Shown piece after piece: positions 15,540 through 51,332 of a stretch of DNA of 64,000 bases. The notes under the pieces are model-generated. The model saw nothing but the letters and a program-made list of their open reading frames with translations. It searched no databases and was not told where the DNA came from. The stretch comes from a virus. The stretch's first letter is position 1. Each line of letters starts with the position of its first letter. Location: positions 14,575 to 78,574 of the IMG/VR virus record IMGVR_UViG_3300010373_000005; one strand, given 5' to 3'. A program made the translations under genes and the position numbers.

Positions 15540-15542
15540 GGT

Positions 15543-15776: not shown

Positions 15777-15796
15777 GCGAACCTCCTGTATGAAAT

Positions 15797-17235: not shown

Positions 17236-17251
17236 TTCTTCGTTCCTCCGA

Positions 17252-17262
17252 TACGAGTGATG
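17252..17262 (-). promoter_or_regulatory. conserved leader motif CATCACTCGTA
   Basis: Plus-strand tacgagtgatg, 17 nt upstream of ATG 17235. Same core as 20256, 22389, 27235 and 58094. Confidence 0.5.
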
Positions 17263-17272
17263 ATACTTCCAG

Positions 17273-17380
17273 CACGGACGCCAGGAATCGAACCTGGTCT
17301 TCGGGTCTTAGCCGCGTGCGCTCTCGCAGACTTCTGACGTCATCGCCTGCGCAGTCTTGTCCAGCCACACCGCGTCCGTG
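17273..17380 (-). ncRNA. tRNA-like element (108 nt). It has a canonical T-arm and an 8-9 bp acceptor-type stem, and a possible Leu(CAG)-like loop on an over-long anticodon arm. It is not a canonical tRNA.
   Basis: Minus strand: CCAGG-TTCGATT-CCTGG T-arm, immediately followed by CGTCCGTG, which pairs with CACGGACG at the 5' end. The interior can form a D-like TGT/ACA stem, a long interrupted hairpin capped by the loop G-T-CAG-A-A, and a short extra arm. It is about 20-30 nt too long for any standard tRNA. It starts about 10 nt downstream of the -10 of promoter 17390-17418. Confidence 0.35.
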
Positions 17381-17389
17381 TACGCTCTT

Positions 17390-17418
17390 ATTATACCAGA
17401 CCTATCGCCTCTTGTCCA
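17390..17418 (-). promoter_or_regulatory. sigma70-like promoter: TGGACA-N17-TATAAT
   Basis: Minus strand: -35 TGGACA (17413-17418), 17-nt spacer, TGG-TATAAT (17390-17395). It overlaps the 3' end of the GT4 gene. Confidence 0.55.
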
Positions 17419-34209: not shown

Positions 34210-34761
34210 TTAGAGCTGGGATGCCTCAATTAGAGCCTTACACCTAATGATAATCAGGCGCACCCCACCGAGGCTCAGGTTATAGTATTCCGCGAGAGAC
34301 CTCATGGAGAACTTGTTCGTAGCGTAGTAGTTGTAGAGTTCAAGTTCTTCTTCCGGAGTGAGCTTGTGAGGGCGACCCTTCCCAGTAGTATACATATGCC
34401 CGGCCGCTATCGCATCTTTCATATTTGAGAGATGAGTGTCCCATCTCAAGTTGGTGATAGCGCAATTCATGGAATCACTGTCATTGTGGCAGGCTTCTAG
34501 TCCCGCAGGACATAAGCCCCTAAACGCCCTCAGCACTGCTACATGAACTCGAAGAGGGTTGGCAGAGTACATCCTGGCCGCTCTGTATTTTCCAATAGTG
34601 CTCTCCTCCACTCGTACTAACTCGTCGCCTTGCTCCCAGTCTACCCAGCTGCGACCGGCGACGCGGTTGTTCCAGATGGTCCACAACGTGCCGTCAGCAC
34701 GCGCAAAGAATCCTAGCTCCCCGGGTATGGGTCTTATTTCTACTCCGTCGTGCGTCAGCAT
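34210..34761 (-). CDS. HNH homing endonuclease (183 aa), low-GC
   Basis: CHNDSDSMNCAITNLRWDTHLSN (HNH_3-type) plus a C-terminal HTH-like tail. The gene is visibly AT-richer than its neighbours. Confidence 0.8.
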   Translation of the reverse strand: MLTHDGVEIRPIPGELGFFARADGTLWTIWNNRVAGRSWVDWEQGDELVRVEESTIGKYRAARMYSANPLRVHVAVLRAFRGLCPAGLEACHNDSDSMNCAITNLRWDTHLSNMKDAIAAGHMYTTGKGRPHKLTPEEELELYNYYATNKFSMRSLAEYYNLSLGGVRLIIIRCKALIEASQL

Positions 34762-34775
34762 CTCGTTCTCCTACC

Positions 34776-36665
34776 TCAAACAAACTTTCGCTTAGCGTCA
34801 TCAGATTTAGCAATAGCCCAGTTGGGACCCCAGCCGATGGCCGCCTTGATAGGCACCCTGAACGGCCGCGACGGGCTCTCGAGCACCTTCACTATCTTGC
34901 GCAGGAAGCGCTCGTCCTGGCAGAGCTCGAGCGGGGCGTAGCCCGCCACCTCGTCGTGCACCTGCGCGAACATCTCGAACTCCGGCACCTCCTCGGCGAG
35001 GGCGACCATCCGCTCCCGGCAGAGCTCTCCCGCCGTGGACTGGCACAGGCTCGGCAGGGCCGTGTGTGCTGCCTGCTCCGGCAGGTGCCTGAGCGCGCCG
35101 TAGTGGTTGCGCACCGAGCCCCTGGCCCTGCACGCGGCGGCCGCGCGCTCCCTGACCGAGCGCAGCTCCGGCAGGTCCGCGTGATACTTGTCGAATACAG
35201 CGGTGGCGCGGTACGCGCAGGCACGCTCGACCGCGGCACGTCGGGCCTCAGGTGGGATTGTACTGTCATTGACAATTTCATCCCAGATGGTCCCGACGAA
35301 CTTCTTGTTGATGGCCAGGGCGGCGATCGTCTTCTTCTTTCCCTGCCCGAACCCGATGGCGAAGTTCAGCGTCTTGGCCGCGTCGCGGCTGCACGGTATC
35401 GAGTCGGCGATCATCTGGTGGAAGTCGGTCCACGGGTCGTCCTGGTACATCTGGATGCACCGCCGGTTCTCCAGGTAGTGCACCAGCACCCTGTACTCAA
35501 CCTGCGAATAATCCGCGCAGATGATCCCGTAGCCCTCGGGAGCCTCGACCAGCGACTTGGCCGCGGTGTCGAACTGCTGCGGGTTGGGCTCGCTCGCGCT
35601 CAGCCGGCCCGTGCGCACCCTGCCGTTGAACGTCGGGTGCAGCCTGCTGTCGTCGGAGATGTGGCCCTTCTTCTCCCACGCCCCGACGAACAGCGACTGG
35701 AACGTGGACAGCTTCCTGTAGTCCAGGATGCCCTGCACGATCTCCGTGGGCGCGTCTGGGTGGTCCAGGTAGAGCGCGAGCGCGTCAGCGTCGAACGACG
35801 GCCCTGGCTTCGACATCGTGCCGTCCGCCCTCTCGCTCGGCTCGGTCCAGGCCAGCACCGGCAGGCCGAACTGGTTGCAGAGCACGTCGTAGCAGTCCTT
35901 GTTCGAGGTGGCCGAGAAGACCCGCCCGATGAGCTTCTCTAGCTCGTAGTCCTTCTCGAGCATCTTCTTGATCGTGTCAATGTGCGCTCGCTTGACCTTC
36001 TTCCGGTCGATGAGCATCCCGCGGCGCTCCATGTCGAAGAGCACGCGTTCGAACTTCTTCGACGTCTCCCAGACCTCGTCGGAGACCGCCGGGAAGTGCT
36101 GCTCCTGCCAGACGTCTAGCTTGATGTTCGTCCTCACGTCGACGCACGCGTACTCTGCCAGGATGTCCAGCGGCACGTCGCCGTAGTCCTTGGAGTCCTC
36201 GAGGTACGGGAGCATCGCGCGCCCGTACTTGTCGATGTTCTCCTCGAGCAGCTGCTCGGAGAGGACGTCGAGCCCGTAGCCTCCCTTGTAGATCCTGTCA
36301 GAGTCGATGAGCTTCGCCCGCGTGAGCGTGCAGCGCATCTCCCTCTGGAAGACCTCATTCAGGTCGTTGGCCGACACGTGCGCGTCGTACTTGACGTGAT
36401 GGTTGGTCCAGGCGGCGGATGCCCTGAGCACGTCGCCCCACCAGCCTGACATGAGCCGCTTCGGCACGAACCAGATAGGACTGTCGCGCCCGAACGCCAC
36501 CGCGACGCCTATGGCTGAGCAGTGGTGCCAGGGATTGGTCGACTTGAGCTTCGGGTCTCCAGACGAGGTCTCAAAATCACAGTATAAGTTTGGTATTATA
36601 CTTGGAACTGATGGAAGATCTCCATGAGTTTCACAAAGCATCCCACCAGATTCAAACTTTATCAC
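34776..36665 (-). CDS. polA: family-A DNA polymerase with 3'-5' exonuclease domain (629 aa)
   Basis: ExoI LYCDFETS; Pol motif A ICADYSQVEYRVL; motif B RDAAKTLNFAIGFG; motif C AQVHDEV. The C-terminus IGWGPNWAIAK is typical of a full-length PolA. Confidence 0.92.
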   Translation of the reverse strand: MIKFESGGMLCETHGDLPSVPSIIPNLYCDFETSSGDPKLKSTNPWHHCSAIGVAVAFGRDSPIWFVPKRLMSGWWGDVLRASAAWTNHHVKYDAHVSANDLNEVFQREMRCTLTRAKLIDSDRIYKGGYGLDVLSEQLLEENIDKYGRAMLPYLEDSKDYGDVPLDILAEYACVDVRTNIKLDVWQEQHFPAVSDEVWETSKKFERVLFDMERRGMLIDRKKVKRAHIDTIKKMLEKDYELEKLIGRVFSATSNKDCYDVLCNQFGLPVLAWTEPSERADGTMSKPGPSFDADALALYLDHPDAPTEIVQGILDYRKLSTFQSLFVGAWEKKGHISDDSRLHPTFNGRVRTGRLSASEPNPQQFDTAAKSLVEAPEGYGIICADYSQVEYRVLVHYLENRRCIQMYQDDPWTDFHQMIADSIPCSRDAAKTLNFAIGFGQGKKKTIAALAINKKFVGTIWDEIVNDSTIPPEARRAAVERACAYRATAVFDKYHADLPELRSVRERAAAACRARGSVRNHYGALRHLPEQAAHTALPSLCQSTAGELCRERMVALAEEVPEFEMFAQVHDEVAGYAPLELCQDERFLRKIVKVLESPSRPFRVPIKAAIGWGPNWAIAKSDDAKRKFV

Positions 36666-37213
36666 GGAAACACCAAATGAGTATACGATTGTCTACGAAC
36701 TAGCTTATAAATAACTATGGGCAACACGTTGTATTCTTCAGCAAGTCGTGTAATATCGTCACCTGCGGCGTGACGTTGGAGTATTCGCAATGCATCTGAG
36801 TCATGAAATAGAGCTCTCCAATGTCTACCGCCTTGATTAGAAGTGCCGCATCGACGTTTGTCAAGCTCATTTGAACTATGGGTATCCCATCTCAAATTTT
36901 GAATGCTGCAGTTAGTCTCGTCACCATCGTAGTGACAGCACTCTAAACCTGGAGGCTTGGGACCAACAAAGGCCTCTAACATCACGTGGTGTAAGTACGG
37001 TTGAACACCGTACATTGATACTACTAATCTATCTGAAGCCTTGTTGTATACCGTAACACACGAGTGAAATTCTTCTCCAAGCTTCCAATCTCTTTGTGGT
37101 TGAGCTCTCCATCGTTTATACCATAACGTCCATACTGAACCTTCTTCCCTAGCGAAATAGTGAGGGAATCTGGGGATCTCTCGTATCTCAAGCCCCTCGT
37201 GCAGCTCGATCAT
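36662..37213 (-). CDS. HNH homing endonuclease (183 aa), low-GC
   Basis: Track ORF trimmed to the ATG that forms an ATGA overlap (37210-37213). CHYDGDETNCSIQNLRWDTHSSN. Paralogous to 34210..34761. Confidence 0.8.
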   Translation of the reverse strand: MIELHEGLEIREIPRFPHYFAREEGSVWTLWYKRWRAQPQRDWKLGEEFHSCVTVYNKASDRLVVSMYGVQPYLHHVMLEAFVGPKPPGLECCHYDGDETNCSIQNLRWDTHSSNELDKRRCGTSNQGGRHWRALFHDSDALRILQRHAAGDDITRLAEEYNVLPIVIYKLVRRQSYTHLVFP

Positions 37214-37770
37214 CCGACCAGCTCCCTCCATTCCTCGAACCTCGAGACGTACGCGTCGATGACGTCCTTCCAGCATGACTGGTCGGACACGACTGCGTCG
37301 ATCCTGTACCTGAACTGCATGTCGCGCATGACGAAGGTCCCGTCGAGGTCCTCAGCCATCTGGTTGAACACGCTGTTCACCATGACGATGTGCTCGATGT
37401 CGTACATGTCGTCGCCCCTCTGGGCGTGCCTCTCGCGCACGGTCGCCTCGTCCGCAGTGACCAGCACGATGAATCCGCACGCCTCCCTGATCGCAGCGTC
37501 GACCAGGTCATACTTCAGAGGAGTCAGGCTCGACTCGTGGTCGTCGCACTTCCTGTACGCGAGCGCGTCGAGGTGGAACCTGTCGTACACCACGTGCGGT
37601 CGGATCATCTCCAGGTACCCGCCGTAGTAGTCGAAGCACGCGGGCGGCCGTGACAGGTGCGCCGCCATGTGCGGCAGCCCGCAGTCGTTTATCGCGGCCA
37701 GGGCCGCCCTGCAGAACGTGGACTTCCCGACTAAATCCCCACCACTGACTATAAGTATGATTTTACCCAT
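37210..37770 (-). CDS. P-loop nucleotide/nucleic-acid kinase-like protein (186 aa)
   Basis: Track ORF trimmed to ATG 37768-37770. Walker A: IILIVSGGDLVGKSTF. Its size and neighbourhood suit a dNMP kinase or a modified-base DNA kinase. Confidence 0.6.
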   Translation of the reverse strand: MGKIILIVSGGDLVGKSTFCRAALAAINDCGLPHMAAHLSRPPACFDYYGGYLEMIRPHVVYDRFHLDALAYRKCDDHESSLTPLKYDLVDAAIREACGFIVLVTADEATVRERHAQRGDDMYDIEHIVMVNSVFNQMAEDLDGTFVMRDMQFRYRIDAVVSDQSCWKDVIDAYVSRFEEWRELVG

Positions 37771-37819
37771 CCTTTCAAACCAGAAACTGTTAGTTGAAGC
37801 TCTATTCCAGTTGGAGAGA

Positions 37820-38038
37820 CTAACATGTCGGGTCTTCTCCTTCGTTAGTGACATTCTCGTCTGGTACCACGTCGCACGACGACGGGTCCACCCACCTCCA
37901 CTTCCCGGCCGCGTCCTTGAAGTGACCGCGACCGTCCTTGGACACGAACTGCACGCGCACCTTGGTGGGCCTGACGGCCCGATCCTCTATCTGCGTGGCC
38001 ACGTACCACGTGCGCTCACTTAGCATCAGTACAGGCAT
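37820..38038 (-). CDS. hypothetical protein (72 aa)
   Basis: Track ORF. The start is uncertain (38038 or 38026). Confidence 0.4.
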   Translation of the reverse strand: MPVLMLSERTWYVATQIEDRAVRPTKVRVQFVSKDGRGHFKDAAGKWRWVDPSSCDVVPDENVTNEGEDPTC

Positions 38039-39002
38039 TGCTTCTCCTCTGCATCAGGGGTGACCGTGGCGACCACTCCAGCGCGGGCCTGAGCTTGTTG
38101 CAGCACGCCCTGAGCAGGTCGGTCCCCATGCCGCCGAGCGCCTGCGCGCGAGCCTCGACCTCGAGCGGGTTGCCACCGTGGCGCAGGAGTGACTCCAGCT
38201 CGACCGCAAGCTTGACCGAGTCGAGCGTGTCGTCGAGCTGCCAGCCGTGTGGGACCTCTGTTGAGGTTCCGCTCGCCAGGGCCTCCCGAGCTCTCGTCTC
38301 GTTCCGCGCGTACAGGTGCATGCTGCCGACCTGGTGGTGGTACTCTCCCACCTGGAGGCCAAGCTCGCAGGCCACGACCCGCTGCAGGCACGTAAAGGCA
38401 AACACGTCGTACGGGAACCCGAGCCACGCGTCGTTCGAGCGCATGGTCGTGACGATGTGGAGTGCCCCGTCGCGGGCCAAGAACTGCAGGCCGAGCGTAC
38501 ACGGCACGTCCGCGCACCCGCCTGACTCAGCGACTGACAAGTCGTGTGGGTCCCAGAACTGGAGCACAGCCTGCCTGGAGAGCGAGGACTTCCTGAGCAT
38601 GTCGACGATCCGCTCGAGCGCGGGTCGGTCGTCAGGCACCTGCGACGTGCCACTGAAGTCAGTGGTCACGTCCCAGGCCGCGAACATCCGCGGGCCGTAC
38701 GCGCCGTACGCCGTGCCGTCCTGCCTGCGGTACTTGACATAGCTGGGGGCGTATTTCTCGATCATCTCCGTGCTGCCCTCGCCCGACATGTACCAGAGGA
38801 ACTCTGCCGCCGCGTACGACGGCGAGAGGTTCCTGACATCGTTCGTGAGGAACGTCCGCTGCTTGCTGGCGTCCAGCACGCCCTTGTACCCGACGACCTC
38901 ACCGCACACTGGGCCGTCACGAGAGTCTCTATTATTTGCGCAGTTCAGGAGCACGAACAGTAGGTGCTCCCACATGTTGTCGATGCTGTCGTAGATGCTC
39001 AT
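38016..39002 (-). CDS. ThyA-fold pyrimidine C5-modifying enzyme with the cytosine-type Asp: putative dCMP hydroxymethylase (or dCMP methylase) (328 aa)
   Basis: Gap-free alignment by eye to E. coli ThyA: [38 protein letters not shown] versus VPCTLGLQFLARDGALHIVTTMRSNDAWLGFPYDVFAF. The catalytic Cys, R-S and D are conserved. ThyA Asn177 is replaced by Asp, as in T4 gp42 (Asp179). ATGA overlap with the upstream gene. Confidence 0.75.
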   Translation of the reverse strand: MSIYDSIDNMWEHLLFVLLNCANNRDSRDGPVCGEVVGYKGVLDASKQRTFLTNDVRNLSPSYAAAEFLWYMSGEGSTEMIEKYAPSYVKYRRQDGTAYGAYGPRMFAAWDVTTDFSGTSQVPDDRPALERIVDMLRKSSLSRQAVLQFWDPHDLSVAESGGCADVPCTLGLQFLARDGALHIVTTMRSNDAWLGFPYDVFAFTCLQRVVACELGLQVGEYHHQVGSMHLYARNETRAREALASGTSTEVPHGWQLDDTLDSVKLAVELESLLRHGGNPLEVEARAQALGGMGTDLLRACCNKLRPALEWSPRSPLMQRRSNACTDAK

Positions 39003-40276
39003 GCTATCTCCTTCCACTTCCTGATGAGCCGGCCCGTCTTCGGGTCGACGTTGAACCTATGACACTGCTCCTGGCACTCTGCCGGGAACCTACCGATGTC
39101 GAAGTCTCGCGGGTAGTACTGCGTGACGTCGATAACCTTCTCGTCCTGACCAGACGTGTCCTCGCCCTCGAACACACCGCGTACGTGATCGTACCGGGTG
39201 GACCAGTCCTCGGTAGGCCCACCCCACTCGTCCTCCAGGCACTTCCTGCACATCTCCGCGATCCAGGTGGCCACGTCCGGCACGACGCCCTTGGCGATCT
39301 GGCTGAACGGGTCTGGCCCTACCGGTATCTCGCCCCTCCATCCCATGATGTCGGCCAGCTCGCCGACCGTGCAGGGCCGGTGCCACCACGGGTGGAGCAG
39401 CCTGCAGCAGGAGTTGGTGAGCGTCGGGGCCGCGCACATCCACGCCGGTCGGTGCACCCCGTGCATGCTGAACGGCATGTCTGACATCCGCTCGTCCCAC
39501 TTCGCCTTGAAGGCCGGTGACAGCTTTTCGTAGTCGTACTGCGCCAGCGTGTTGGCGTCCCACCCGCTGGCCATGTGCGGCAGCGAGTGCCACTCGTCCG
39601 CGGTCAGTTGCAGGTACGAGTCCTGATCGTACCCCCCGTCCCTGATCATCGGCAGCGGGTCGACGACATTGCACTCCCGGTGTCGCCTCTCGGAGATCGC
39701 GTCCCACAGCATCGGAGCGTGCTCCAGCATCGGCGGCAGGTCGACGTTGAACTGCCTGTCTCTGGGGTAGGCCACCTGGAAGTACCGCTTGCGATTCTGC
39801 GCGTTACCGAAAGTCCGGGCGTTCACGAACACGTGCGCGACCCGGTAGCCGTTCTCGATGAATCTTCTAGTAAAAGAATCCACGAGGGGCTTCCCTGTGC
39901 GGTAGGCCTGCTGGACAGACTCCCACACGATGAGCGAGAACTCGTAGGCCAGCCCGTAGTCGACCAGCTCCTTGACGTCCTGGCACTGCCTCGCCTCGGG
40001 GCCGTGACCGGTAGAGGACAACCCCGCCGTCACGTTCGAGAACGCGGTACATCTTGGATTGCCGTAGAGCACGTCGATCCTGCCGTGACCCAGTGCCACT
40101 GGCGCGGGCCACGCGCAGGCTCCATCAGCCGGTCGGATCACTGGCACCTTCCAGACCTTCTCCACTGTGTCGTCGCCCAGCCCGTGCACCTCCAGCTGGG
40201 CCTTCACGTCGAACACGTCCTTGAAACCTGCGGTCATCCCGCCGGCGAACACGTGGCATCCTAGTGCCTTGATCAT
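38999..40276 (-). CDS. DNA (cytosine-5)-methyltransferase-like protein with variant catalytic motifs (425 aa)
   Basis: Motif I HVFAGGMTAGF; motif IV GNPRCTAFS (usual PPC becomes PRC); motif VI IVWESV (usual ENV becomes ESV); motif VIII FGNAQNRKRYF. Confidence 0.65.
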   Translation of the reverse strand: MIKALGCHVFAGGMTAGFKDVFDVKAQLEVHGLGDDTVEKVWKVPVIRPADGACAWPAPVALGHGRIDVLYGNPRCTAFSNVTAGLSSTGHGPEARQCQDVKELVDYGLAYEFSLIVWESVQQAYRTGKPLVDSFTRRFIENGYRVAHVFVNARTFGNAQNRKRYFQVAYPRDRQFNVDLPPMLEHAPMLWDAISERRHRECNVVDPLPMIRDGGYDQDSYLQLTADEWHSLPHMASGWDANTLAQYDYEKLSPAFKAKWDERMSDMPFSMHGVHRPAWMCAAPTLTNSCCRLLHPWWHRPCTVGELADIMGWRGEIPVGPDPFSQIAKGVVPDVATWIAEMCRKCLEDEWGGPTEDWSTRYDHVRGVFEGEDTSGQDEKVIDVTQYYPRDFDIGRFPAECQEQCHRFNVDPKTGRLIRKWKEIA

Positions 40277-40905
40277 GCCAGTCTCACTCCCCGGCAGTGC
40301 GACCTGCCGTGCTCGTCGAACTGCCTGAGGGCCCTGTGCAGTGACTCACCGCACAGCGCGCACTCGTCTGTGGACCTGAAGTCATGAGGACTCAACTGAA
40401 ATTGACGATAGTCTGTCAGCACTCGCAAAAAGTTCGCAGGAATGTAATTGGGTCCTTTGCGACGCACACGAGCTTTTGAAGGATCATCTTCTTGTTTGGT
40501 CTTCGTCATGTTCGACTCGTGAGCTTCTACGAAGCCCTCGGCGAGCGGCAGGTCGAGCGTCACGGCCGTGCCCTTGATGACGTACAGGGCGTCGGCCAGG
40601 GCGTCGAGCGTCTCCACCTCGTCTCGCTCGGAGAGAGCCATCAATAGCTCCTCGATCTCCTCGACGACGAGCTGGGCACGGGCCACGCGCTCGTCGTCGC
40701 TATGCTCAACCAGCATGCGCTCGAACTTGTCGGCCAGGCCCTTCAGGCTCAGCGCCGACTGGTACAGCTGCTCGTCCACCACCTCCTTGAGCCTCGGGTC
40801 GGACAGCCTCTGGGTCGGACACACCTGTAGCTTCGTGTGGAAGCCCTTCACGCAGGCCATGGCGCTGTTGATACCGGTTACTATCTCGTTTCTGAGCTCC
40901 CTCAC
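40273..40905 (-). CDS. MazG-like nucleoside-triphosphate pyrophosphohydrolase (210 aa)
   Basis: VVEEIEELLMALSERDEVETLDALADALYVIKG shows the E-x2-E-E ... D-x2-D-x-L-Y all-alpha NTP-PPase pattern. Confidence 0.6.
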   Translation of the reverse strand: MRELRNEIVTGINSAMACVKGFHTKLQVCPTQRLSDPRLKEVVDEQLYQSALSLKGLADKFERMLVEHSDDERVARAQLVVEEIEELLMALSERDEVETLDALADALYVIKGTAVTLDLPLAEGFVEAHESNMTKTKQEDDPSKARVRRKGPNYIPANFLRVLTDYRQFQLSPHDFRSTDECALCGESLHRALRQFDEHGRSHCRGVRLA

Positions 40906-41153
40906 GGTGTCACCTCCCCTCTGTACTCGCTGGTCTGCCTCTCGCAGAACTCAGCTATGGTGAACAGGCAGTCGGCATCGAACGTCGACTGCTGTGCTGG
41001 AAAGAAGTTATACCTTCGCCAAGAAGCATACCACTTCACCTCTCCTAAGAAGTGACCGGTCACAGCTTCGACGTGCCAGGTCTTGGTCTTCTTACCTGCA
41101 TTCTCGTTGGCATGACTCACGTCCCTGAACAGTATGTGATCGCTCGTCTTCAT
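40902..41153 (-). CDS. hypothetical protein (83 aa)
   Basis: Track ORF with a 4-nt overlap to the downstream gene. Confidence 0.5.
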   Translation of the reverse strand: MKTSDHILFRDVSHANENAGKKTKTWHVEAVTGHFLGEVKWYASWRRYNFFPAQQSTFDADCLFTIAEFCERQTSEYRGEVTP

Positions 41154-41154: not shown

Positions 41155-44004
41155 TCAGAACTTCTTCTCCTTTCCGTCCTTGTCGGTCTCCTTCTTGAGG
41201 TGGTCGGGACGATCGACGATCGTCGTCCTGTTCAACCACTCGATGAACTCCGGTGTCTTCACGTACGTGCGCCCGATCTTCTTGAGCGCCTGCTTCCTCA
41301 CCAGCACCGACAGCAGGTTGCCGGCTATGCCGTAGTCACCTCCCACCCAGTCCCGCAGGTCATGCTGGTCCACGTAGTCGGAGAACAGCAGGTGCTGGTG
41401 CAGGTCCTTCGGATTGATCGTCGACTCGATGGCGGACTTGATCTCAGCCGGGTCGCGCAGGACGTGCGTCTGCTGCAGGGCCCTCGAGTAGTACTCGTAC
41501 CCGAAGATCTTGGACGAGTAGACCCTGTCGAGGAGCGCCACCACGAACTTGACGTGGCACCTCCTCACGCGCACCTTTGTCTCGTCCTCGTCCTGCGTCG
41601 AGAAGGTCCGGCACGCCACTGACGCGGCGAGCCTCGAGAGCTTCTCAGGCATAGAGCCTGCATCGACCAGTGGTATCTGCGCGCTGTACTTCTTGGACAA
41701 ACTGACTGCTTCTTCGTGCGCGTGCTCTGACGCGTCCTCGTCGAACAGCACGTCACCGCGCTTACGAGTCCAGGCCCACAGGATCAGGGAGTGGCACAGC
41801 TCGCTAGTGTACACGTGCGGCACGTCCGGCGGGTTGCGCCTGAGCTCGTCGAGGACTCCCGGATCGACCTCCTCCTTGCTGACTATCAGTGCTGCGTCGA
41901 ACCTGCGGATGTCCTCGGGCGCACCGATCAGGTCCCTGACCGCTTCCACGCCGAACGCGTAGGATGACACGGTCCTGTCGTGCCTGCAGTTCGAAAGACC
42001 GACCAGTCTGGTCCTGGCGAGCGTTCGCTTCTTCTCGATCTTGGTAATCTCAGCCACACCGGACGACCGCATGTCGGTGCACTTGCTGAAAGCCTCTGTA
42101 GACATGCCCTTCATCTCCTCGAGCCCGACGAGTCGCCGGTCGTGGGTCGGTATGACGCCCCAGGAGATGATCCACTGCTCGCCCACCTTCTTGACGCCGC
42201 CCAACAGGCCGGCCGGAGTGGCGCCCTTGCAGACCAGCTTCTCCCCGACGCGGTAGTGCCTCAGTAGGTTGTCGAAGACGTAACTCTTGCCCTGGGCTGA
42301 GTCCCCGACAATGAGCGTCTCGACCCACCCCTTGACCTCCTTGCCGTCCAGGTCGAGCAGCAGCGGCGAGTGGTACGCCAGGTCGACGAACAGGTGGACG
42401 TCGTGCCGCATGAAGATCCTGGTGACGTTGCGCTCCAGGTCAGAATAGAGGTGATGGAGCTTCGTCTCGATACCCTCCCTGGACCACTCGTCGGGCCTGA
42501 AGACGCGGAGCTTCTCGAGGTCAGTGGGCACGTACGTGCTGAGGGCATCGTGGGCGGCCTCGGCCTCTGATAGGACCAGCGTCGCCTGTTGGTTCTGCGG
42601 GTGCGGGAACATCCTGCCGGTGAACTCGTAGGACGCGTTCAGCTCTCCTGTGCAGCTGACGCACAGGCCGCGCCTGGCGGACTTGTCCACGTCCTGATTG
42701 GAGATCTCGAGTGACGGTGCTATCTGTACGTCCTCCACGTCGAAGTGGCCGGTCACGTCGAGCTGCGCGTCCTTGCACGCACGCGGGACTCTTATGGCGT
42801 CGCGCATGGCGCCGTCGAGGTGCTGACTCGCTGCGTGCACCATCTGCAGTATGGAGGGCGACTCTGGGCTCACGTCGAACTCAGTGGCGTCGGACGCGTA
42901 CACCGCGCACAGCGGGCAGCAGTTCTGCATCTTCCCACACTTGACCTTGACCCTGCGCGGTACCACGTAGTGACCGACCACCGACGCCGACACCACGCCG
43001 CTGAACCTCATCCGGCGCCCGACGTTGGTCGCTCTCACCGTCTCGTGCAGCCTGCAGGACAGCACCGACTCTTCGCCATTCACCTGATGATCAGGTACGG
43101 CATCTGGGAGCCACTGTGGAGTACCGAGGACGAGGGCGACCAGGTCACCGCTCTCCGCAGCCACGAAGTCGTTGACGTCTCCCTTGGGATGCTTGTCCCT
43201 GTCGAGGGGCAGCTGCACCCAACCGAGCCAAGAGGCGACCAGTCTCAGTCGCATCAGGTGCGCCTCTGCTGCCTTGACTCCCGCGTCATCCACGTCCATC
43301 ATGACGTAGACCTTCTTGCCCTTGAACTCCATAGTCAGCTCGGGCTCCCAGTTGCCCTCGCCTGCCGTGGCACACACCGCGCCTATCCCGTGTGAGTTAA
43401 GCAGTCGCGCTGCCAGTATGGCCTTCATCTCGCCCGCGCAAAGCACGATCGTCTCGTATTCCATCTGTTCTATCGGGTACAGGCGGGTCTGCCCGCGCCC
43501 GCTGAGATTTCGCATCTTCTCAGGACCGGGGGCTCCAGGAAGATACTTGCGGATGTTCACGAACAGCCCGTGGGCGTTCTTGACTGGGATGGTGACCCGG
43601 CCGTCCTGATACCCGATGCGGTACTTCCGCAGGTCCTCGTCCGTGATGCCCCGGTCCCTGAGCGCCTTCAGCAGGTGGGGCTGGGACGGGAGCATCTGGA
43701 ACGCAGTCTCCACCACGCTCACGTCGACGGTCTTGACCTCCTCGAGGTCGTACATTGTCGACAGAAACTTGAAGACGGTGGAACGGTTCTTCCCGGTGGC
43801 CAGCGAGTAGAACTGGACGAAGTCTCCCTTAGCAGGACACACCTTACAATTCCACAGACCGCTCTCCACGTTCATCGTGGCCGAGGGGTCCTTGTCATCA
43901 TGCCCGGGATCTGGACACTGTAGCTTCACCTCTGAGTCTGACAGTGGTTTGAAGGTCCACTTCAGGCGCTCGAGCTCGGCTAGTACTGAGATCCTTGACG
44001 CCAT
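41155..44004 (-). CDS. bifunctional DNA primase / P-loop helicase (949 aa)
   Basis: zf-CHC2-like CPDPGHDDKDPSATMNVESGLWNCKVCPAKGD; TOPRIM IVLCAGEMKA ... YVMMDVDDAG; Walker A LIVGDSAQGKSY in the C-terminal half. Confidence 0.8.
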   Translation of the reverse strand: MASRISVLAELERLKWTFKPLSDSEVKLQCPDPGHDDKDPSATMNVESGLWNCKVCPAKGDFVQFYSLATGKNRSTVFKFLSTMYDLEEVKTVDVSVVETAFQMLPSQPHLLKALRDRGITDEDLRKYRIGYQDGRVTIPVKNAHGLFVNIRKYLPGAPGPEKMRNLSGRGQTRLYPIEQMEYETIVLCAGEMKAILAARLLNSHGIGAVCATAGEGNWEPELTMEFKGKKVYVMMDVDDAGVKAAEAHLMRLRLVASWLGWVQLPLDRDKHPKGDVNDFVAAESGDLVALVLGTPQWLPDAVPDHQVNGEESVLSCRLHETVRATNVGRRMRFSGVVSASVVGHYVVPRRVKVKCGKMQNCCPLCAVYASDATEFDVSPESPSILQMVHAASQHLDGAMRDAIRVPRACKDAQLDVTGHFDVEDVQIAPSLEISNQDVDKSARRGLCVSCTGELNASYEFTGRMFPHPQNQQATLVLSEAEAAHDALSTYVPTDLEKLRVFRPDEWSREGIETKLHHLYSDLERNVTRIFMRHDVHLFVDLAYHSPLLLDLDGKEVKGWVETLIVGDSAQGKSYVFDNLLRHYRVGEKLVCKGATPAGLLGGVKKVGEQWIISWGVIPTHDRRLVGLEEMKGMSTEAFSKCTDMRSSGVAEITKIEKKRTLARTRLVGLSNCRHDRTVSSYAFGVEAVRDLIGAPEDIRRFDAALIVSKEEVDPGVLDELRRNPPDVPHVYTSELCHSLILWAWTRKRGDVLFDEDASEHAHEEAVSLSKKYSAQIPLVDAGSMPEKLSRLAASVACRTFSTQDEDETKVRVRRCHVKFVVALLDRVYSSKIFGYEYYSRALQQTHVLRDPAEIKSAIESTINPKDLHQHLLFSDYVDQHDLRDWVGGDYGIAGNLLSVLVRKQALKKIGRTYVKTPEFIEWLNRTTIVDRPDHLKKETDKDGKEKKF

Positions 44005-46215: not shown

Positions 46216-46244
46216 ATTATAACAAGTGCTAGGACAGTTGTACA
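46216..46244 (-). promoter_or_regulatory. sigma70-like promoter: TGTACA-N17-TATAAT
   Basis: Minus strand: -35 TGTACA (46239-46244), 17-nt spacer, TGT-TATAAT (46216-46221). It overlaps the 3' end of the last island gene. Confidence 0.55.
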
Positions 46245-47134
46245 CCATCTTCACGTCTTTTTTGAAAATATTCCTGAACTTTCCGCCTGAAGGCCTCCGG
46301 CGCTGTCAGCGACCACTTGAGCAGGCCCTGCTCGTCGTTCTCGACGTGCTCGCGCGGGCTGAAGCCAGGAAGCATGAGCCTGCGCCCGCGAGTGTCTCTG
46401 TCCTGAAGAGATCCGTGGTGCATGTGTACGATCGAGCCCATGACGAACCCGAATGACAGCAACTCGCCGTTCGCCCAGCGGCGCACGTCGTTCTGCACCG
46501 TGCTGCCTACCTCCGACGTCCGGAACGGGTCGACGCCCGTGAAGGCCCTGAGCATCAGGGTGTCACCGTTGCCTGTGACGGCCCGGTCGTACAGCCTGAA
46601 GCCACGCCTGAGGTGACTCGCGCGCATCGCCCAGGCCATGCCGGGGTGACTCTGCGCGAAGTCGCACCACATCTTGGCGTACGTCGACCAGTGCCAGCCC
46701 GTGGACTTCACGGGCGTCGTGATCCTCTCGTCAGAGTCCGTCAGTGACGCGTCGCTGAACATCTGCACGACGTCGTATCGTTCCAGCTCCCTGAGCGTGT
46801 CGGCCTCCCACCTCGGATTGACGAAGATCACGTCCGCGTCGACCCACGCGACGGCCGTGACCTCCGGGTCTCGCAGTGCCTTCGCGAAGCCAACGTTGAG
46901 CAATGCCTCCTTCTGCCACATCCAGTTCTCGGCTCGGGTGCCACGGAGCGTCGTCCAGGCGTGCAGGCCTCGGCTGATGACGTCATTGTCATTGACACTG
47001 ACGTCATCGTCGAGGACTAGTTCCACTATGTGTACCGGCCTGTCGATGACGTGCAGGAACCTCTTCAAGTTCTCGACGGGTCGCCGGTACTGGCACGGGT
47101 TGAAGTGACACGCTACCACAGCTAGCTTCGGCAT
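46229..47134 (-). CDS. GT-A-like nucleotide-sugar transferase (301 aa)
   Basis: AVVACHFNPCQYRRPVENL N-terminus and AWVDADVIFVNPRW (DxD-type) motif. The family was not identified by search. Confidence 0.5.
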   Translation of the reverse strand: MPKLAVVACHFNPCQYRRPVENLKRFLHVIDRPVHIVELVLDDDVSVNDNDVISRGLHAWTTLRGTRAENWMWQKEALLNVGFAKALRDPEVTAVAWVDADVIFVNPRWEADTLRELERYDVVQMFSDASLTDSDERITTPVKSTGWHWSTYAKMWCDFAQSHPGMAWAMRASHLRRGFRLYDRAVTGNGDTLMLRAFTGVDPFRTSEVGSTVQNDVRRWANGELLSFGFVMGSIVHMHHGSLQDRDTRGRRLMLPGFSPREHVENDEQGLLKWSLTAPEAFRRKVQEYFQKRREDGVQLS

Positions 47135-47766
47135 CGCGCCTCCTGCCAGGAGAGCTTCTCAGGAGAAGTCTCCTCGCCGGGGAGCGACACGAACTTGGCA
47201 CGTGGGCGCTGGCACTCGTGCGGCACTGCCTCCCAGAAGTACACGGCCAGCGACTTCCTGAGCACGCCCGGAGGGCACGGGATGGGTCGTGGCACACCGT
47301 GGTAGGAGAAGTCGTTCGTCTGGAACGCGACCAGCCTGTTACGCCTGGGCAGCACGCTGGCCTGCTTCTTGCCCTCCCAGAACTCGAGCCCACCGCCCCA
47401 CTCTGCCGACCACTCGCCGACGAAGAGCACGAGGTTGAGGGCCCGCCTGAAGCCGGTCCTCGGGTGCACGTCGCAGTCGAGATGCAGGTCGAGCACCCCG
47501 CCCGACGGCATCGCGTGCATGCCACCGCCGTGCAGCGTCTCGTCTGTGGTCAGTCCCGCGGGGCAAAGAAGCTGCAGCTGGGCAAGAAGGGAAGCACATA
47601 CGGGTGGTACTGCCTTATTAGCCGCGAGCTTTCGCTCGCCAGGGCTGTCGTACTTGACCCACCCCTCCCAAGACTCGTCCGGAAATTCCTCCGAAGCTTG
47701 AGCGACCAGTCCGGCATCGAGCGCCCCGTCGTAGACATCCCAATAGAAGTCATCGCCTCCCGCCAT
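47122..47766 (-). CDS. 2OG-Fe(II) oxygenase, prolyl-hydroxylase-like (214 aa)
   Basis: Track ORF 47122..47880 trimmed to ATG 47764-47766. GGVLDLHLDCD (HxD) ... GGGLEFW ... NRLVAFQTNDFSYHGV (distal His) ... RKSLAVYFW (Arg). Confidence 0.7.
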   Translation of the reverse strand: MAGGDDFYWDVYDGALDAGLVAQASEEFPDESWEGWVKYDSPGERKLAANKAVPPVCASLLAQLQLLCPAGLTTDETLHGGGMHAMPSGGVLDLHLDCDVHPRTGFRRALNLVLFVGEWSAEWGGGLEFWEGKKQASVLPRRNRLVAFQTNDFSYHGVPRPIPCPPGVLRKSLAVYFWEAVPHECQRPRAKFVSLPGEETSPEKLSWQEARCRS

Positions 47767-48479
47767 GACTCGAAGAGGGGCCAGACCCGCTCCCTCCAGT
47801 ATGGCAGGTCGTACGGGTTGCGGTCCCCCTGCTCGAACAGGCATGCCGTCTCCTTCCTCGTGAAGTGCCTCGAGGGCCATATCTCTACTCCATGTGAGTT
47901 CTGATCAATTTCCTCCCAGTCTCGCGACCGGACTGCCTCGTTGTCGAACCAGAAGAACGTGCCCGAGTAGTGCCACGGCACCACCTGCTGCACCCCGCTG
48001 AAGTAGCACTGCGGGCGTCGGAAACACCCGGCCATGTGGTGCTCTTCCATGGCCGCGTCTAGTAATTTAGGCCAGTCCAGGCACACGTGCGTCATGACGT
48101 CGACCCACAGCCTGACAGACTCGTAGCACGCCTGCTGGTGCGTGTGCGTGACTCCCTTCGCGTGACAGTAGAAAGTCCTGCCCGGCTGGTCGACTACGGC
48201 GCGCACCAGCGGACGCCACGTCACCACCTCCCTGAGCTGCGGGTCGTTGTCGTAGATCTCTATCTCCGCGTCGGGAGGAAGCTCGTCTGCCACCTCCTGC
48301 GGGTCGGCCGTCTCGACCGTTATGTCTTCGGTGACAACCACGGGCTCGGCAGACGTGACCACTGCGACGACCTTCTTCCCGTCGAACTGGTCCCAGCGCT
48401 CCGCCAGCATGCGCAGCAGGCGCTGCCACTCGGAGCTGGTCTTCACCGGCCAGACGTGAACCAGGAGATGACTCTTCAC
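47550..48479 (-). CDS. conserved unknown, island paralog 1 (309 aa as read to its stop)
   Basis: GTG 48477-48479 forms a GTGA overlap with the methyltransferase stop. Paralogous to 50622..51332 (FDGKKVVAV, FYCHAKGVTH, WHYSGTFFWF, GVEIWPS). The reading frame continues about 80 codons past the paralog's end point and overlaps the oxygenase gene by 217 nt. Confidence 0.6.
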   Translation of the reverse strand: MKSHLLVHVWPVKTSSEWQRLLRMLAERWDQFDGKKVVAVVTSAEPVVVTEDITVETADPQEVADELPPDAEIEIYDNDPQLREVVTWRPLVRAVVDQPGRTFYCHAKGVTHTHQQACYESVRLWVDVMTHVCLDWPKLLDAAMEEHHMAGCFRRPQCYFSGVQQVVPWHYSGTFFWFDNEAVRSRDWEEIDQNSHGVEIWPSRHFTRKETACLFEQGDRNPYDLPYWRERVWPLFESWREAMTSIGMSTTGRSMPDWSLKLRRNFRTSLGRGGSSTTALASESSRLIRQYHPYVLPFLPSCSFFAPRD

Positions 48480-49003
48480 AGGCTGCACTCCTCCACCCGG
48501 AGGTGGAACCTGTTCTCGTGCCTCGTCCTGGGAAGCCACGTCATTATGTCGAGGTCACTCCACTGCCTGAACAGCGGGTTGGCACGCGCCATAGGGAACC
48601 AGTAGTCGTCGCAGCCTGGCTCGATGCGCTCGATGCGCAGCCTGCGCGGGTATCCCCCGAAGAAGATCTGCGGGAATACGTCGCTCATGTGACGAAAGAA
48701 GTTGATCGACACGACGCCCTCGTGGCCGATCACCATGGCCATCTCGCTGGTCGCGTCTGGGCACCGGATCTCGACGGTAGCTCCTACCTTGCAGACGCGG
48801 GCCACCTCGCGCAGGAACGTGATAGGGCACCTGACGTGCTCGATGCAGTGGCTGGAGTACAGCTGGTCGACGGACGCGTCCTCGAACGGCCACGGGGTGT
48901 CGTTAAGGTCGTGCACCATGTCGGCGCACGCCAGCATGTCTACGTTCACGAAGCCCTCGCCCCTGGGCCTGTCACCGCCGCCTATCTCGATCTTGAGTGT
49001 CAA
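48476..49003 (-). CDS. class I SAM-dependent methyltransferase (175 aa)
   Basis: LKIEIGGGDRPRGEGFVNVD (motif I) ... FEDASVDQLYSSHCIEHV ... VCKVGATVEIRCP (Methyltransf_11-like order). Confidence 0.7.
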   Translation of the reverse strand: MTLKIEIGGGDRPRGEGFVNVDMLACADMVHDLNDTPWPFEDASVDQLYSSHCIEHVRCPITFLREVARVCKVGATVEIRCPDATSEMAMVIGHEGVVSINFFRHMSDVFPQIFFGGYPRRLRIERIEPGCDDYWFPMARANPLFRQWSDLDIMTWLPRTRHENRFHLRVEECSL

Positions 49004-49031
49004 CGCTCACCTCCTGTATATGCTTGATCCA

Positions 49032-49991
49032 TCACGGAAACTCCCGATGCCTGGGGCCTTCGACATCCCCTGCCACTATTGCTAATGCTTTATTGAATTC
49101 ATGAAGACGACAGCAGTGCTGACACTCCGGTATGACGTCGACGCCGTTCCTGACCATGTCGCACCGGCGCTCTCCGAGCCATATCTCGTCGAACCTCTCG
49201 TCGTGCAGGTTACCGAACGTGAAGGCCTCCTGACCTCGGTGGTACGCGCACACGGATACACTACCATCATGCCAGACAAACGGAATAATCCTATGACCAT
49301 GACATTTAGGATACTCGTGAGGCTTGAGATAGTCCTTCCACTTATAAGAAGTAGACTCGATCTCGACTCCGCAATTCACGTACTCCTCCAGCCATGTCGG
49401 GAATGTCACTGGCTGCTGCAGCGCGACGTTGTCGGCCAGGGCGGGCCTGAACTGGAAGTACGCCACGCCCGCGCCGATGGCCTCGTCCAGCATCCTCCTG
49501 CACTGGTCCTGGTTGTCGTTCGTCAGGTTGAAGTTCACCCCGACGTGCGTAGCCCTCGCGTACTCCGCCACGTACTTGGTCAGCACGAACTTCTCGGTGA
49601 CGGTGACCCTGATCCACTCCAGCCTGTCTGGACGCGCTATCCGCCTGTACGCGTTGGTGAACATCCCCTGCTTCAGCCCCAGCCGGTGCGCGTAGGCGAT
49701 CGCATGGTCTATGCCAGAGTACTCGCACGGGTCACCGCCGCCGGTCCACGTCACGGACTGCGAGCCCATCATCCGCATGTCGTCCAGAAGGCCAAGCAGG
49801 TAGTCGAGCTGCAGCTCCTCGCGGGAGTGGTGGCCCTTACGCGCAGATGCGACGTAGAAGCACCATGGGCACTCAGCGCCGCAGTGGTTGGTCGGGCTAA
49901 CCTCCACCGAGACTGGAGCCTTCTTCCAGTTATCGAGCACACCGGAGTGCACGAGCAGCTTCAGCTGCGGGTCGAACTGGGTCGTATGCAT
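49032..49991 (-). CDS. radical SAM enzyme with a Cys-rich C-terminal (SPASM/twitch-like) extension (319 aa)
   Basis: SPTNHCGAECPWCFY (CxxxCxxC), TWTGGGDP (GGE-like), and C-terminal CAYHRGQEAFTFGNL ... RRCD ... PECQHCC. Confidence 0.8.
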   Translation of the reverse strand: MHTTQFDPQLKLLVHSGVLDNWKKAPVSVEVSPTNHCGAECPWCFYVASARKGHHSREELQLDYLLGLLDDMRMMGSQSVTWTGGGDPCEYSGIDHAIAYAHRLGLKQGMFTNAYRRIARPDRLEWIRVTVTEKFVLTKYVAEYARATHVGVNFNLTNDNQDQCRRMLDEAIGAGVAYFQFRPALADNVALQQPVTFPTWLEEYVNCGVEIESTSYKWKDYLKPHEYPKCHGHRIIPFVWHDGSVSVCAYHRGQEAFTFGNLHDERFDEIWLGERRCDMVRNGVDVIPECQHCCRLHEFNKALAIVAGDVEGPRHREFP

Positions 49992-50007
49992 GATAGGTAC
50001 CTACCTC

Positions 50008-50625
50008 TCACCCGTGCACCATGATGTGACCGCTGACGTGCGCTCGCCTGTTAGTCTTCTTCATCATCTCTGCCACGTGCTTGCCGTCTGCGGTCTCCCC
50101 GAAGTCCGCGTACGGCGTGGACTCGACCAGCTTCCTGCGCGCCAACCACCCGCCTATGCCGATACTGCCCTCTTGCGGAATCGCCGTAAACGGCTTCCAG
50201 TTGGCGTGGTTGTGCACGAAGTTGCAGAAGACGAAGTCTGCCGACTTCTCGATGGCTTCTGAAAGAAGCCATTCTAAATATACCGGGCAGCACCAGTCGT
50301 CGTCTGCGAAGCCTCCGACCCACTCGCCGGTGCACCGCGTCCGCTCGTACAGGTCGCGTATCGGGTAGCCCCACTGCCCCACGTGCCTCGGGTGCTCCTC
50401 GAAGGTGAACCGTGGATCGCTGTCGATGCTGGTCTTCAGTACGGAAGACCAGTCTCTGTCAGCGGGACCGTCGTGCGCTACGAGCACCTCGAAGTCCTCG
50501 TGCGTCTGGGCGCGCAGGGCCCACAGCAGCGACACGAGCTGTCGGTGCCTGTGATGCGTCACGATGACCAGCGATACCTTGTTACCCGGCGGGATGACCC
50601 GCGTCTTCCAGTGCGTGAACCTCAC
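50008..50625 (-). CDS. GT2-family (GT-A) glycosyltransferase (205 aa)
   Basis: This is the C-terminal part of track ORF 50008..50994. GTG 50623-50625 forms a GTGA overlap with the upstream stop. VSLVIVTHHRHRQLVSLLWALRAQTHEDFEVLVAHDGP and FADDDW (DxD). Confidence 0.7.
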   Translation of the reverse strand: MRFTHWKTRVIPPGNKVSLVIVTHHRHRQLVSLLWALRAQTHEDFEVLVAHDGPADRDWSSVLKTSIDSDPRFTFEEHPRHVGQWGYPIRDLYERTRCTGEWVGGFADDDWCCPVYLEWLLSEAIEKSADFVFCNFVHNHANWKPFTAIPQEGSIGIGGWLARRKLVESTPYADFGETADGKHVAEMMKKTNRRAHVSGHIMVHG

Positions 50626-51332
50626 CCTGTCATGCACAGCGAGCCCTCCACTGACCTGCGCCAGCACTCGAGGCTGGGCGTTATGGTACTGTCCCACTCG
50701 CGTCGGTCGTACAGCTGACCCGCGTTGGCCCGCTCGTAGAACAGGCAGAACGCCTCTTCTCGCGGGAAGATGCCCGGCCATCCCTCGACGCCCATGAACG
50801 TCTGGTGCACATCGCGCCAGTTGAGCGACCGGGCACGCTCGTTCCTGAACCAGAACCACGTCCCGGAGAAGTGCCACCCGTGGTCTCGTATCCCGTCGGC
50901 CATGAACGCGCCGCAGACGTGCTTGCCCGAGCTGAACGCGCACTCGACCAGCTCGGGGTACTCCAGGCACGCTGCAGCCATAGCCTCGCGCCACAGGTGA
51001 GGGGCCTCACGCGGGCTCTCGTGCGTGGCGCCCTTGGCGTGGCAGAAGAACGTGATCCCTGGCTGGTCGATGACCTGCTCTAGAGCAGGGAGGAAGTATC
51101 TCGTCTCGCGCAGGTTCGGGTCGTTCTTGCCTAGCATGAACTCCGTGTCGGTGCTGAACGCGCGCAGCGAGTCGACCACTTCCGCGTGTTCCACGCAGCA
51201 CTGGTCGGTGGCCACGGCGATCACCTTCCTGCCGTCGAACTGGTGCCAGTGCCGTGACAGGTGCTCTGCCGTGCGGCGCCAGTGCCCGTTCTTTCGCGGG
51301 TAGAAGTAAGCTATCAGGTTGCGCTGGAGCAT
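50622..51332 (-). CDS. conserved unknown, island paralog 2 (236 aa)
   Basis: Track ORF 50622..51380 trimmed to ATG 51330-51332 (TGATG overlap with the upstream stop). This start aligns with the GTG start of paralog 1. Confidence 0.6.
   Translation of the reverse strand: MLQRNLIAYFYPRKNGHWRRTAEHLSRHWHQFDGRKVIAVATDQCCVEHAEVVDSLRAFSTDTEFMLGKNDPNLRETRYFLPALEQVIDQPGITFFCHAKGATHESPREAPHLWREAMAAACLEYPELVECAFSSGKHVCGAFMADGIRDHGWHFSGTWFWFRNERARSLNWRDVHQTFMGVEGWPGIFPREEAFCLFYERANAGQLYDRREWDSTITPSLECWRRSVEGSLCMTG

Follow-up and report, generated by a model that had tools for sequence, protein, structure and literature searches.

A run of nucleotide-metabolism genes in an uncultured phage raises two questions: how this phage treats the cytosine of its DNA, and what a gene for an enzyme with the cytosine-C5-methylase fold is doing in the middle of that run. 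The window analysed here, a stretch of 64,000 nucleotides (positions 14,575 to 78,574 of IMG/VR virus record IMGVR_UViG_3300010373_000005), has a GC content of 62% and carries nearly all of its genes on the minus strand, and its sequence recurs in a Logan assembly and in an ENA metagenome contig of 78 kb. The genes in question, all on the minus strand, encode a MazG-like pyrophosphohydrolase (40273-40905, 210 amino acids (aa)), a C5-methyltransferase-like protein (C5MT; 38999-40276, 425 aa), a ThyA-fold protein (38016-39002, 328 aa) and a P-loop kinase (37210-37770, 186 aa from the start at MGKIILIV). The initial annotation, which read them as a module for the replacement of cytosine at the nucleotide level, had located all four correctly, and every motif it quoted was found (ADVPC, MRSND, FPYDVFAF, NPRCTAFS and WESV).

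We consider it probable that these genes form a T4-type operon for the pre-replicative replacement of cytosine, extended by one extra enzyme. The core module would be of the already known gp56/gp42/gp1 kind, all of its steps and products being predicted: the MazG-like pyrophosphohydrolase would convert dCTP to dCMP, lowering the normal dCTP pool and feeding the next step, and the ThyA-fold enzyme would transfer a one-carbon unit from methylene-tetrahydrofolate onto C5 of dCMP, with attack by water giving 5-hydroxymethyl-dCMP (5hm-dCMP). The thymidylate-kinase-like enzyme would then form the diphosphate, a host nucleoside diphosphate kinase would complete the triphosphate, and the phage family-A polymerase would insert 5-hydroxymethylcytosine (5hmC) in place of cytosine in phage DNA, with dTMP being supplied by a separate ThyX. 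As a best guess, the C5MT, which is translationally coupled in the operon, would add a second layer to the DNA after replication, alkylating cytosines that escaped replacement either with methyl or with carboxymethyl from host carboxy-S-adenosylmethionine (carboxy-SAM). Published work bears on the core of this pathway: co-expression of a ThyA homolog and its deoxynucleoside monophosphate (dNMP) kinase was sufficient for modified cytosine in Escherichia coli DNA (PMC13326640), and thymidylate-synthase domains with Asp at position 177 and a neighbouring PRA-PH domain are statistically tied to cytosine-modified viral contigs (PMC8670742).

The ThyA-fold enzyme and its nucleotide-level partners

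The ThyA-fold protein is placed among the thymidylate synthases by PHROG and by Pfam (PF00303, 8.5e-24, 84.6 bits against a cut-off of 24.3); the NCBIfam thymidylate synthase models score far under their cut-offs. Among solved structures its best sequence match in HMMER searches is MilA, the CMP 5-hydroxymethylase of mildiomycin biosynthesis (PDB 5b6d, 5jnh), with 3e-31 versus 2e-18 for a thymidylate synthase, and with a profile of the ThyA-like family the values become 6e-54 versus 5e-35. An AlphaFold (AF2) model built from 36 family members reached a mean predicted local distance difference test score (pLDDT) of 93.6, and its top Foldseek match is again MilA, with template modelling (TM) scores of 0.77-0.80 over the full length including the C-terminal helices, an extension common to both proteins; thymidylate synthases reach a TM score of only ~0.58.

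Residue equivalences were taken from a MAFFT alignment with E. coli ThyA and T4 gp42, in which the active-site block aligns to E. coli ThyA without gaps, as had been described. The catalytic cysteine is C168 (E. coli C146), and D199 occupies the position of E. coli N177, T4 D179 and the corresponding MilA Asp. This placement of the Asp, on which the initial annotation had built its argument, is retained by MAFFT, by HMMER against the MilA and ThyA structures and by AlphaFold with Foldseek; D199 is invariant (36/36 family members), and Asp is also present in all 63 ThyA-like copies readable at this position beside distant C5MT genes. The other equivalences are D165 (E. coli L143, T4 D145), T169 (H147), S189 (S167), R143 (R126), D191 (D169, kept and invariant in the family), H229 and Y231 (H207 and Y209), and the family-invariant E67 and Y102 (Glu58 and Tyr94). 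The window enzyme agrees with T4 gp42 at E. coli positions 143, 146, 147, 167, 169 and 177, that is at every diagnostic active-site position, although overall identity is only 23% and the protein is closer to MilA, and the diagnostic residues are all invariant across the ThyA-like family.

According to the published work, Asp at 177 selects cytosine over uracil (PMC13326640, PMC8670742), and an acidic residue at 143 admits water and is associated with hydroxymethyl instead of methyl products (PMC13326640); MilA, like the window protein, has Asp at both positions. A deoxyribose substrate is marked by Ser167 and Arg126, for which MilA has Ala and Lys (PMC5175136). These MilA residues, Ala176 and Lys133, favour ribose, whereas Ser189 and Arg143 of the window protein form the deoxyribose pattern, and the context differs likewise, being antibiotic synthesis for MilA and phage replication here. 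At every tested position the ThyA-fold protein is thus best read, from sequence, as a predicted dCMP hydroxymethylase. The proposal of a dCMP-acting enzyme flanked by MazG-like and kinase proteins therefore gains support from the residues and the MilA match, and can be sharpened, still as a prediction, from hydroxymethylase or methylase to hydroxymethylase.

Two other activities of this fold were rejected. Flavin-dependent 5-hydroxy-dCMP synthases of the RB69 gp48 type are marked by Asn at 169 (PMC13326640), where the window protein keeps Asp (D191), and D199, D165 and T169 speak against a canonical ThyA, as does the presence of a separate ThyX-type (flavin-dependent) thymidylate synthase (13237-14178, minus strand; phrog_85 4e-62, PF02511 9e-9, and TIGR02170 8e-8, below its cut-off). 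The phage carries two unrelated thymidylate synthase folds, and with ThyX present the ThyA-fold enzyme is not needed for dTMP and is free for cytosine chemistry.

The MazG-like protein matches PF01503 (PRA-PH; 5e-10, 40.1 bits against a cut-off of 21.3) and phrog_671, annotated as 'nucleotide pyrophosphohydrolase' (2e-17), and its homologs adjoin the ThyA-like gene in most related loci. It is predicted to be an all-alpha nucleoside triphosphate pyrophosphohydrolase, and its genomic context suggests that it would convert dCTP to dCMP and pyrophosphate. A weak second MazG-like tblastn match (E 0.007; 58422-58637, minus strand) lies inside an open reading frame near the structural genes and is probably due to chance.

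The kinase had no Pfam match, and since a word-indexed search returned two proteins only, its family was built instead from translated related loci. The family shares the motifs EGxDxxGK(T/S)T and DRF, with G10, D12, G15, K16, D63 and R64 invariant, and its profile matches SPbeta YorR (7e-15) and thymidylate kinases (3e-6) in the PDB; phrog_761, 'thymidylate kinase', holds both the window kinase and its counterpart from a distant lineage discussed below. Judged by these matches, the protein resembles dNMP kinases of the thymidylate kinase type more than DNA-base kinases, with a predicted conversion of 5hm-dCMP to 5hm-dCDP. Both roles had been offered before; motifs and profile speak for the first, and the second is now less favoured.

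The dCTPase, hydroxymethylase and dNMP kinase of T4 (gp56, gp42 and gp1) follow the same three-step logic and belong to the same enzyme superfamilies. Compared with T4, the window has a pyrophosphatase of the MazG/PRA-PH type and a thymidylate-kinase/YorR-like kinase, its genes are packed into a single tight operon within a siphovirus-like genome (~78 kb, 62% GC), and a C5-methyltransferase-fold gene is embedded in this operon, while T4 has none. The closest precedent for the domain combination comes from the MetaGPA metavirome contigs, in which Asp177 thymidylate-synthase homologs occur together with PRA-PH and dCMP deaminase domains, a co-occurrence that was linked experimentally to cytosine-modified viral DNA; the tailoring enzyme there is a carbamoyltransferase, and methyltransferases and kinases are unmentioned in the main text (PMC8670742). 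If the predicted core pathway is correct, a large uncultured phage lineage joins the T4-type 5hmC strategy, which helps to predict the restriction and CRISPR resistance of environmental phages.

Fold and active site of the C5-methylase-fold enzyme

The C5MT matches PF00145 above the gathering score (2e-8), with only residues 67-183 covered. Its AF2 model has a pLDDT of 91.7, and Foldseek returned M.HaeIII as the best match (1e-17), along with DNMT1/MET1, M.HhaI and CmoX (PDB 8yf3). In place of the canonical motifs FxGxG (I), P-C (IV), ENV (VI) and GN (X) the protein has FAGGMT, NPRC, ESV and AK-G, and it carries an additional C-terminal part of ~80 aa. These are family features: in a 38-member alignment FAGG(F/M)T, Glu29, NPRC-T-x-FS, W-ESV, QxRxR and QIAKGVVP are invariant or nearly so, and in the window protein they appear as FAGGMT, E29, NPRC (with Cys76), ESV (with Glu119), QxRxR, and QIAKGVVP with Lys329. 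The family shows no variation at C76, E119, Q160, R162 and R164, so the motif IV Cys, the motif VI Glu and the motif VIII QxRxR are kept. With regard to the positions which contact the adenosyl part of S-adenosylmethionine (SAM) in M.HhaI (F18, E40 and D60), F10 and the invariant E29 are kept, and the D60 position (before Trp56) holds Asp or Glu in most members and Ala in the window protein. Those contacts that are retained would favour a SAM-type cofactor.

Lys329 corresponds to N304 of M.HhaI and to R350 of CmoX, both in profile alignments to 3g7u and MET1 and in a direct alignment with M.HhaI and CmoX (for which the HhaI sequence was checked at eleven known residue numbers). A second cationic residue, Arg75, directly precedes the catalytic Cys76. 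In CmoX, Arg350 replaces N304 of M.HhaI and binds the carboxylate of carboxy-SAM (PMC12783734), and the engineered enzymes M.MpeI N374K and M.MedI N377K acquire carboxymethyltransferase activity (PMC12015181). The suspicion that the chemistry of the C5MT differs from plain methylation had been raised from its PRC and ESV motifs, and it gains support from Lys329, a residue which the initial annotation did not mention. The enzyme may alkylate residual cytosine or may act on 5hmC.

CmoX, from Synechococcus phage S-B43, shares with the C5MT the C5-methyltransferase fold, the catalytic Cys and a cationic residue at the N304 position, which is Arg in CmoX and Lys in the window protein, as in the engineered M.MpeI and M.MedI variants. 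The two differ in that the window protein has NPRC rather than SPPC and ESV rather than ENV, with 22% identity, is without a nearby phage CmoA or CmoY, and is linked to a dCMP hydroxymethylase module, which has not been reported for CmoX. The CmoX authors define their family by SPPC and counted 4,257 CmoA against 5,615 CmoX sequences, so a phage-encoded CmoA and/or CmoY ligase on the same contig is typical but not universal. In S-B43 (L122, 46451-49704) a 'pyrophosphatase' gene lies ahead of the characterised CmoA-CmoY-CmoX cluster, which places a MazG-type gene beside a DNA C5-alkyltransferase there too. A Methyltransf_11 protein encoded in the window was considered as a candidate CmoA and rejected, as it did not match CmoA models.

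Another known system combines a phage C5-methyltransferase with TET/5mYOX enzymes (PMC8256090). There the C5-methyltransferase takes the first step towards 5hmC and 5-methylcytosine is oxidised on the DNA, whereas the window has a predicted nucleotide-level hydroxymethylase instead; the domain searches gave no Tet_JBP match, and the sole oxygenase of the window is a 132-aa 2OG-FeII_Oxy_3 protein ~7 kb from the module. In Bacillus phage G (L204, NC_023719 226490-241368) a ThyA homolog is encoded in a cluster with dCMP deaminase, thymidylate kinase and alpha-glucosyltransferase genes, and the separate C5-methyltransferase of this phage is the viral protein that matches the window C5MT best in structure.

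Recurrence of the module and competing readings

A search of a 5.8-billion-protein set gave 1,026 members of the ThyA-like family at E<=1e-10, and at least 589 IMG/VR stretches encode a ThyA-like relative. The window lineage has a conserved gene order of primase-helicase, MazG, C5MT (optional), ThyA-like, kinase and PolA, in which the position of the polymerase is syntenic across related loci. We then selected 80 viral loci solely for the ThyA-like gene and scored the neighbours within 10 kb. The kinase family was the most constant partner (61/80), whereas the C5MT type was found in only 22/80, most kinase-bearing loci being without it.

The reverse comparison gave a different picture. A full scan of 1.84 billion cluster representatives for the C5MT superfamily gave 2,213 relatives at E<=1e-3, of which 233 reached E<=1e-30, with FAGGFT, (D/E)WP, NP(R/P)C and ESV as common motifs and Lys or Arg at the N304 position. 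For the close NPRC subfamily, represented by 32 IMG/VR loci, a ThyA-like gene is nearby in all but one (31/32) and mostly adjoins it, and for the distant NPPCA subfamily a ThyA-like gene lies within ~3 kb in 64 of the 80 loci fetched, with a MazG-like gene within the same distance in 54 to 68 of these 80. A twelve-residue diagnostic signature was identical in 56 of the 64 ThyA-like genes beside NPPCA C5MT genes. It is clear that the C5MT almost never occurs without a ThyA-like gene, whereas the ThyA-like gene often occurs without a C5MT, which is the pattern of an optional enzyme dependent on a hydroxymethylcytosine pathway. The combination of ESV-type C5-methylase-fold enzymes carrying Lys or Arg with a near-obligate link to a dCMP hydroxymethylase appears to be undescribed in the literature searched.

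An example of the second lineage is locus L164, where genes with overlapping ends encode, in order, an archaeo-eukaryotic primase, an exonuclease, a UvrD helicase, the C5MT, MazG, a 341-aa protein without assigned function, the kinase, the ThyA-like protein, dCMP deaminase and PolA. The C5MT of this locus carries the motifs NPPCA and ESV, with Arg at the N304 position, and the kinase of the locus belongs to the family of the window kinase (7.6e-15). The locus shares no related replication genes with the window, and the module of four genes has therefore stayed intact in two backgrounds that diverged deeply, which bears out the original grouping of these genes as one module. The 341-aa protein (phrog_14998; L164 9450-10475) lies between MazG and kinase in 48/80 of the second-lineage loci and has no homolog in the window.

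The NPRC subfamily was absent from 185,579 species genomes, and isolate phages contained no close homolog, with 11 weak matches of which the best had 24% identity. Bacterial genomes do contain ThyA-like homologs with Asp177 (36-40% identity), in Burkholderiales (Variovorax, Acidovorax, Rubrivivax, Ottowia), Micromonosporaceae and Acidobacteria; on these contigs (L205-L234) the context is different, with a kinase nearby in one only and a C5MT in none, and bacterial genomes thus gave no lead to the host of the phage. As to the relatives of the phage itself, no near-identical DNA was found among GenBank phages, the best relative in a search for cultured ones was the uncultured Manatee Spring siphovirus MW202657, and primase-helicase relatives in isolate phages have identities of at most 29%.

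Several points weigh against a T4-type pathway with a second, alkylated layer. Across the ThyA-like family Gln (Q144) is found where E. coli ThyA (R127), T4 gp42 and MilA have a phosphate-binding Arg, which in these three enzymes reaches the phosphate from the partner subunit, and the prediction of the product from the L143 and D169 positions draws on correlations from few characterised enzymes. The substrate of the MazG-like enzyme is uncertain, so cytosine replacement may be partial; were it complete, a C5-alkylating enzyme would be left without a substrate, which makes the second-layer role uncomfortable. The kinase family has a weak match to gp54 of phage M6, a 5-hmdU DNA kinase (5-HMUDK; hhalign probability 49%, E 1.8e-4, 127 columns). 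With regard to the C5MT, the engineered N-to-K enzymes still methylate with SAM (PMC12015181), and in part of the superfamily the N304 position is occupied by Gln or Asn rather than by Lys or Arg. Neither CmoA nor CmoY was detected by tblastn with the S-B43 queries in the window and ~115 related loci (E<=0.01) or in 80 further loci (E<=1e-4), the related loci being scanned over flanks of 8-10 kb.

A wider suggestion is made here tentatively: the ESV-type C5MTs, with NP[R/P]C and Lys or Arg at the N304 position, could be a new class of DNA-modifying enzymes that need either 5hmC-containing DNA or an anionic SAM analogue of the host, and that make an undescribed cytosine derivative. If true, a new hypermodified base would arise from nucleotide-level hydroxymethylation combined with covalent Cys-C6 catalysis on DNA. 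The C5MT is the more valuable lead, as it belongs to a superfamily of more than 2,000 protein clusters, has a cationic residue at the very position where carboxy-SAM users carry theirs, and occurs almost only in predicted dCMP-hydroxymethylase operons. Should it carboxymethylate DNA or modify 5hmC, it would represent a new natural DNA modification route and a candidate tool for the chemistry of epigenome sequencing, in which N-to-K methyltransferases made by engineering already serve.

The alternative that survives best, though we judge it unlikely, is that the C5MT acts directly on 5hmC in DNA, with the nucleotide-level steps remaining as proposed above. Cys76 would attack C6 of the flipped-out base, the hydroxymethyl group would be substituted or extended to give a new hypermodified cytosine, and the C5 substituent or a leaving group would be held in contact with Lys329 and Arg75. 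Dependence on the ThyA-like gene and the absence of CmoA nearby favour this alternative: the Asp-type ThyA gene stands beside the C5MT in 31/32 and 64/80 loci and the reverse holds in 22/80, as would be the case for a tailoring enzyme acting downstream, the two genes remain paired in both of the deeply diverged lineages, and the NPRC family is missing from all 185,579 species genomes. In addition, the normal route cannot add a further alkyl group at C5 of 5hmC, and in vitro C5-methyltransferases can catalyse exchange reactions on the exocyclic carbon of this base. On the other hand, we know of no natural enzyme that acts in this way on 5hmC, no candidate gene for supplying a donor is conserved alongside, and the adenosyl-contacting residues (F10, Glu29 and the Asp or Glu before Trp56 in most members) lead one to expect a SAM-type cofactor. 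The asymmetry could also be explained by a slow enzyme of low specificity, useful only once most cytosine has been replaced. We rank the second-layer reading, in which the C5MT alkylates residual cytosine, slightly higher than direct chemistry on 5hmC.

It is considerably less likely that the kinase is a DNA-base kinase like 5-HMUDK, which would phosphorylate 5hmC to create a leaving group, possibly for the C5MT, with host kinases handling 5hm-dCMP. The match to M6 gp54, a protein of the same size, points in this direction, and the C5MT has cationic active-site residues to which a phosphate could bind. However, the matches to YorR and thymidylate kinases are stronger and come with the EGxDxxGKT and DRF motifs, no aGPT-Pplase/AADT-type gene is present among the Pfam matches of the contig's called genes, and the kinase accompanies the ThyA-like gene in 61/80 loci, mostly without a C5MT; moreover, a pre-replicative pathway requires a dNMP kinase, for which no other candidate is present. 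Least probable of all is that the ThyA-fold enzyme is a dCMP methylase of the XP12 type, giving DNA with 5-methylcytosine in which the C5MT finishes cytosines incorporated unmethylated: Asp at N177 alone does yield 5-methyl-dCMP in engineered thymidylate synthases (quoted in PMC8670742), and an end product shared with a DNA C5-methylase would neatly account for the co-travel of the two genes, but the L143 position holds Asp as in T4 gp42 and MilA instead of a bulky hydrophobic residue, the nearest characterised relative (MilA) is a hydroxymethylase, and Lys at the HhaI N304 position is atypical of plain methylases.

Gene junctions, neighbouring genes and other clusters

Gene junctions were read straight from the sequence. 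The operon is preceded by genes for the primase-helicase (41155-44004, minus strand, 949 aa) and orf83 (40902-41153, minus strand, 83 aa), the latter overlapping the MazG-like gene by GTGA. The four genes had been described as consecutive ATGA overlaps, which holds for the MazG/C5MT and C5MT/ThyA junctions, but not for ThyA and the kinase, which are separated by orf72 (37820-38038, minus strand, 72 aa) and a gap. Orf72 starts 23 nucleotides ahead of the stop codon of the ThyA-fold gene, giving an overlap of that length, and is followed by a 49-nucleotide gap with a GAAAGG ribosome-binding site before the kinase. Gene calling on the source contig includes it, but it has no Pfam, PHROG or NCBIfam match and no homolog in the related loci, and its status as a genuine gene is doubtful either way.

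Downstream, a further ATGA overlap joins the kinase gene to an HNH endonuclease gene (36662-37213, minus strand, 183 aa; PF13392 6e-11, phrog_1492), so the family-A DNA polymerase gene (34776-36641, minus strand, 621 aa; PF00476 5.6e-36, phrog_17 2.7e-78) does not adjoin the kinase as had been assumed. This HNH gene is a mobile passenger outside the pathway. Together with a second HNH endonuclease gene (34210-34761, minus strand, 183 aa) it flanks the polymerase, and in the relatives L088, L089 and L109 such genes lie between MazG and C5MT or between C5MT and ThyA. The module is a hotspot for the insertion of homing endonucleases, with the gene order retained.

Finally, two other minus-strand clusters encode potential tailoring enzymes. 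The first (15138-18772) contains an RGP/GT75-like protein (PF03214, 3e-10), a 456-aa protein with a weak GT1 match and a SET-domain protein; the RGP/GT75-like and 456-aa proteins are possible candidates for 5hmC glycosyltransferases, and the 456-aa protein had no similarity to the alpha-glucosyltransferase of phage G or to any PDB entry. The second (46229-50667) is a run of six genes between the tail and replication genes, which encode a family-2 glycosyltransferase, a radical SAM/SPASM enzyme, the Methyltransf_11 protein mentioned above, a 309-aa protein without assigned function, the small 2OG-Fe(II) oxygenase and a 301-aa protein likewise without assigned function, and this run could be a candidate cluster for the tailoring of sugar, peptide or DNA.

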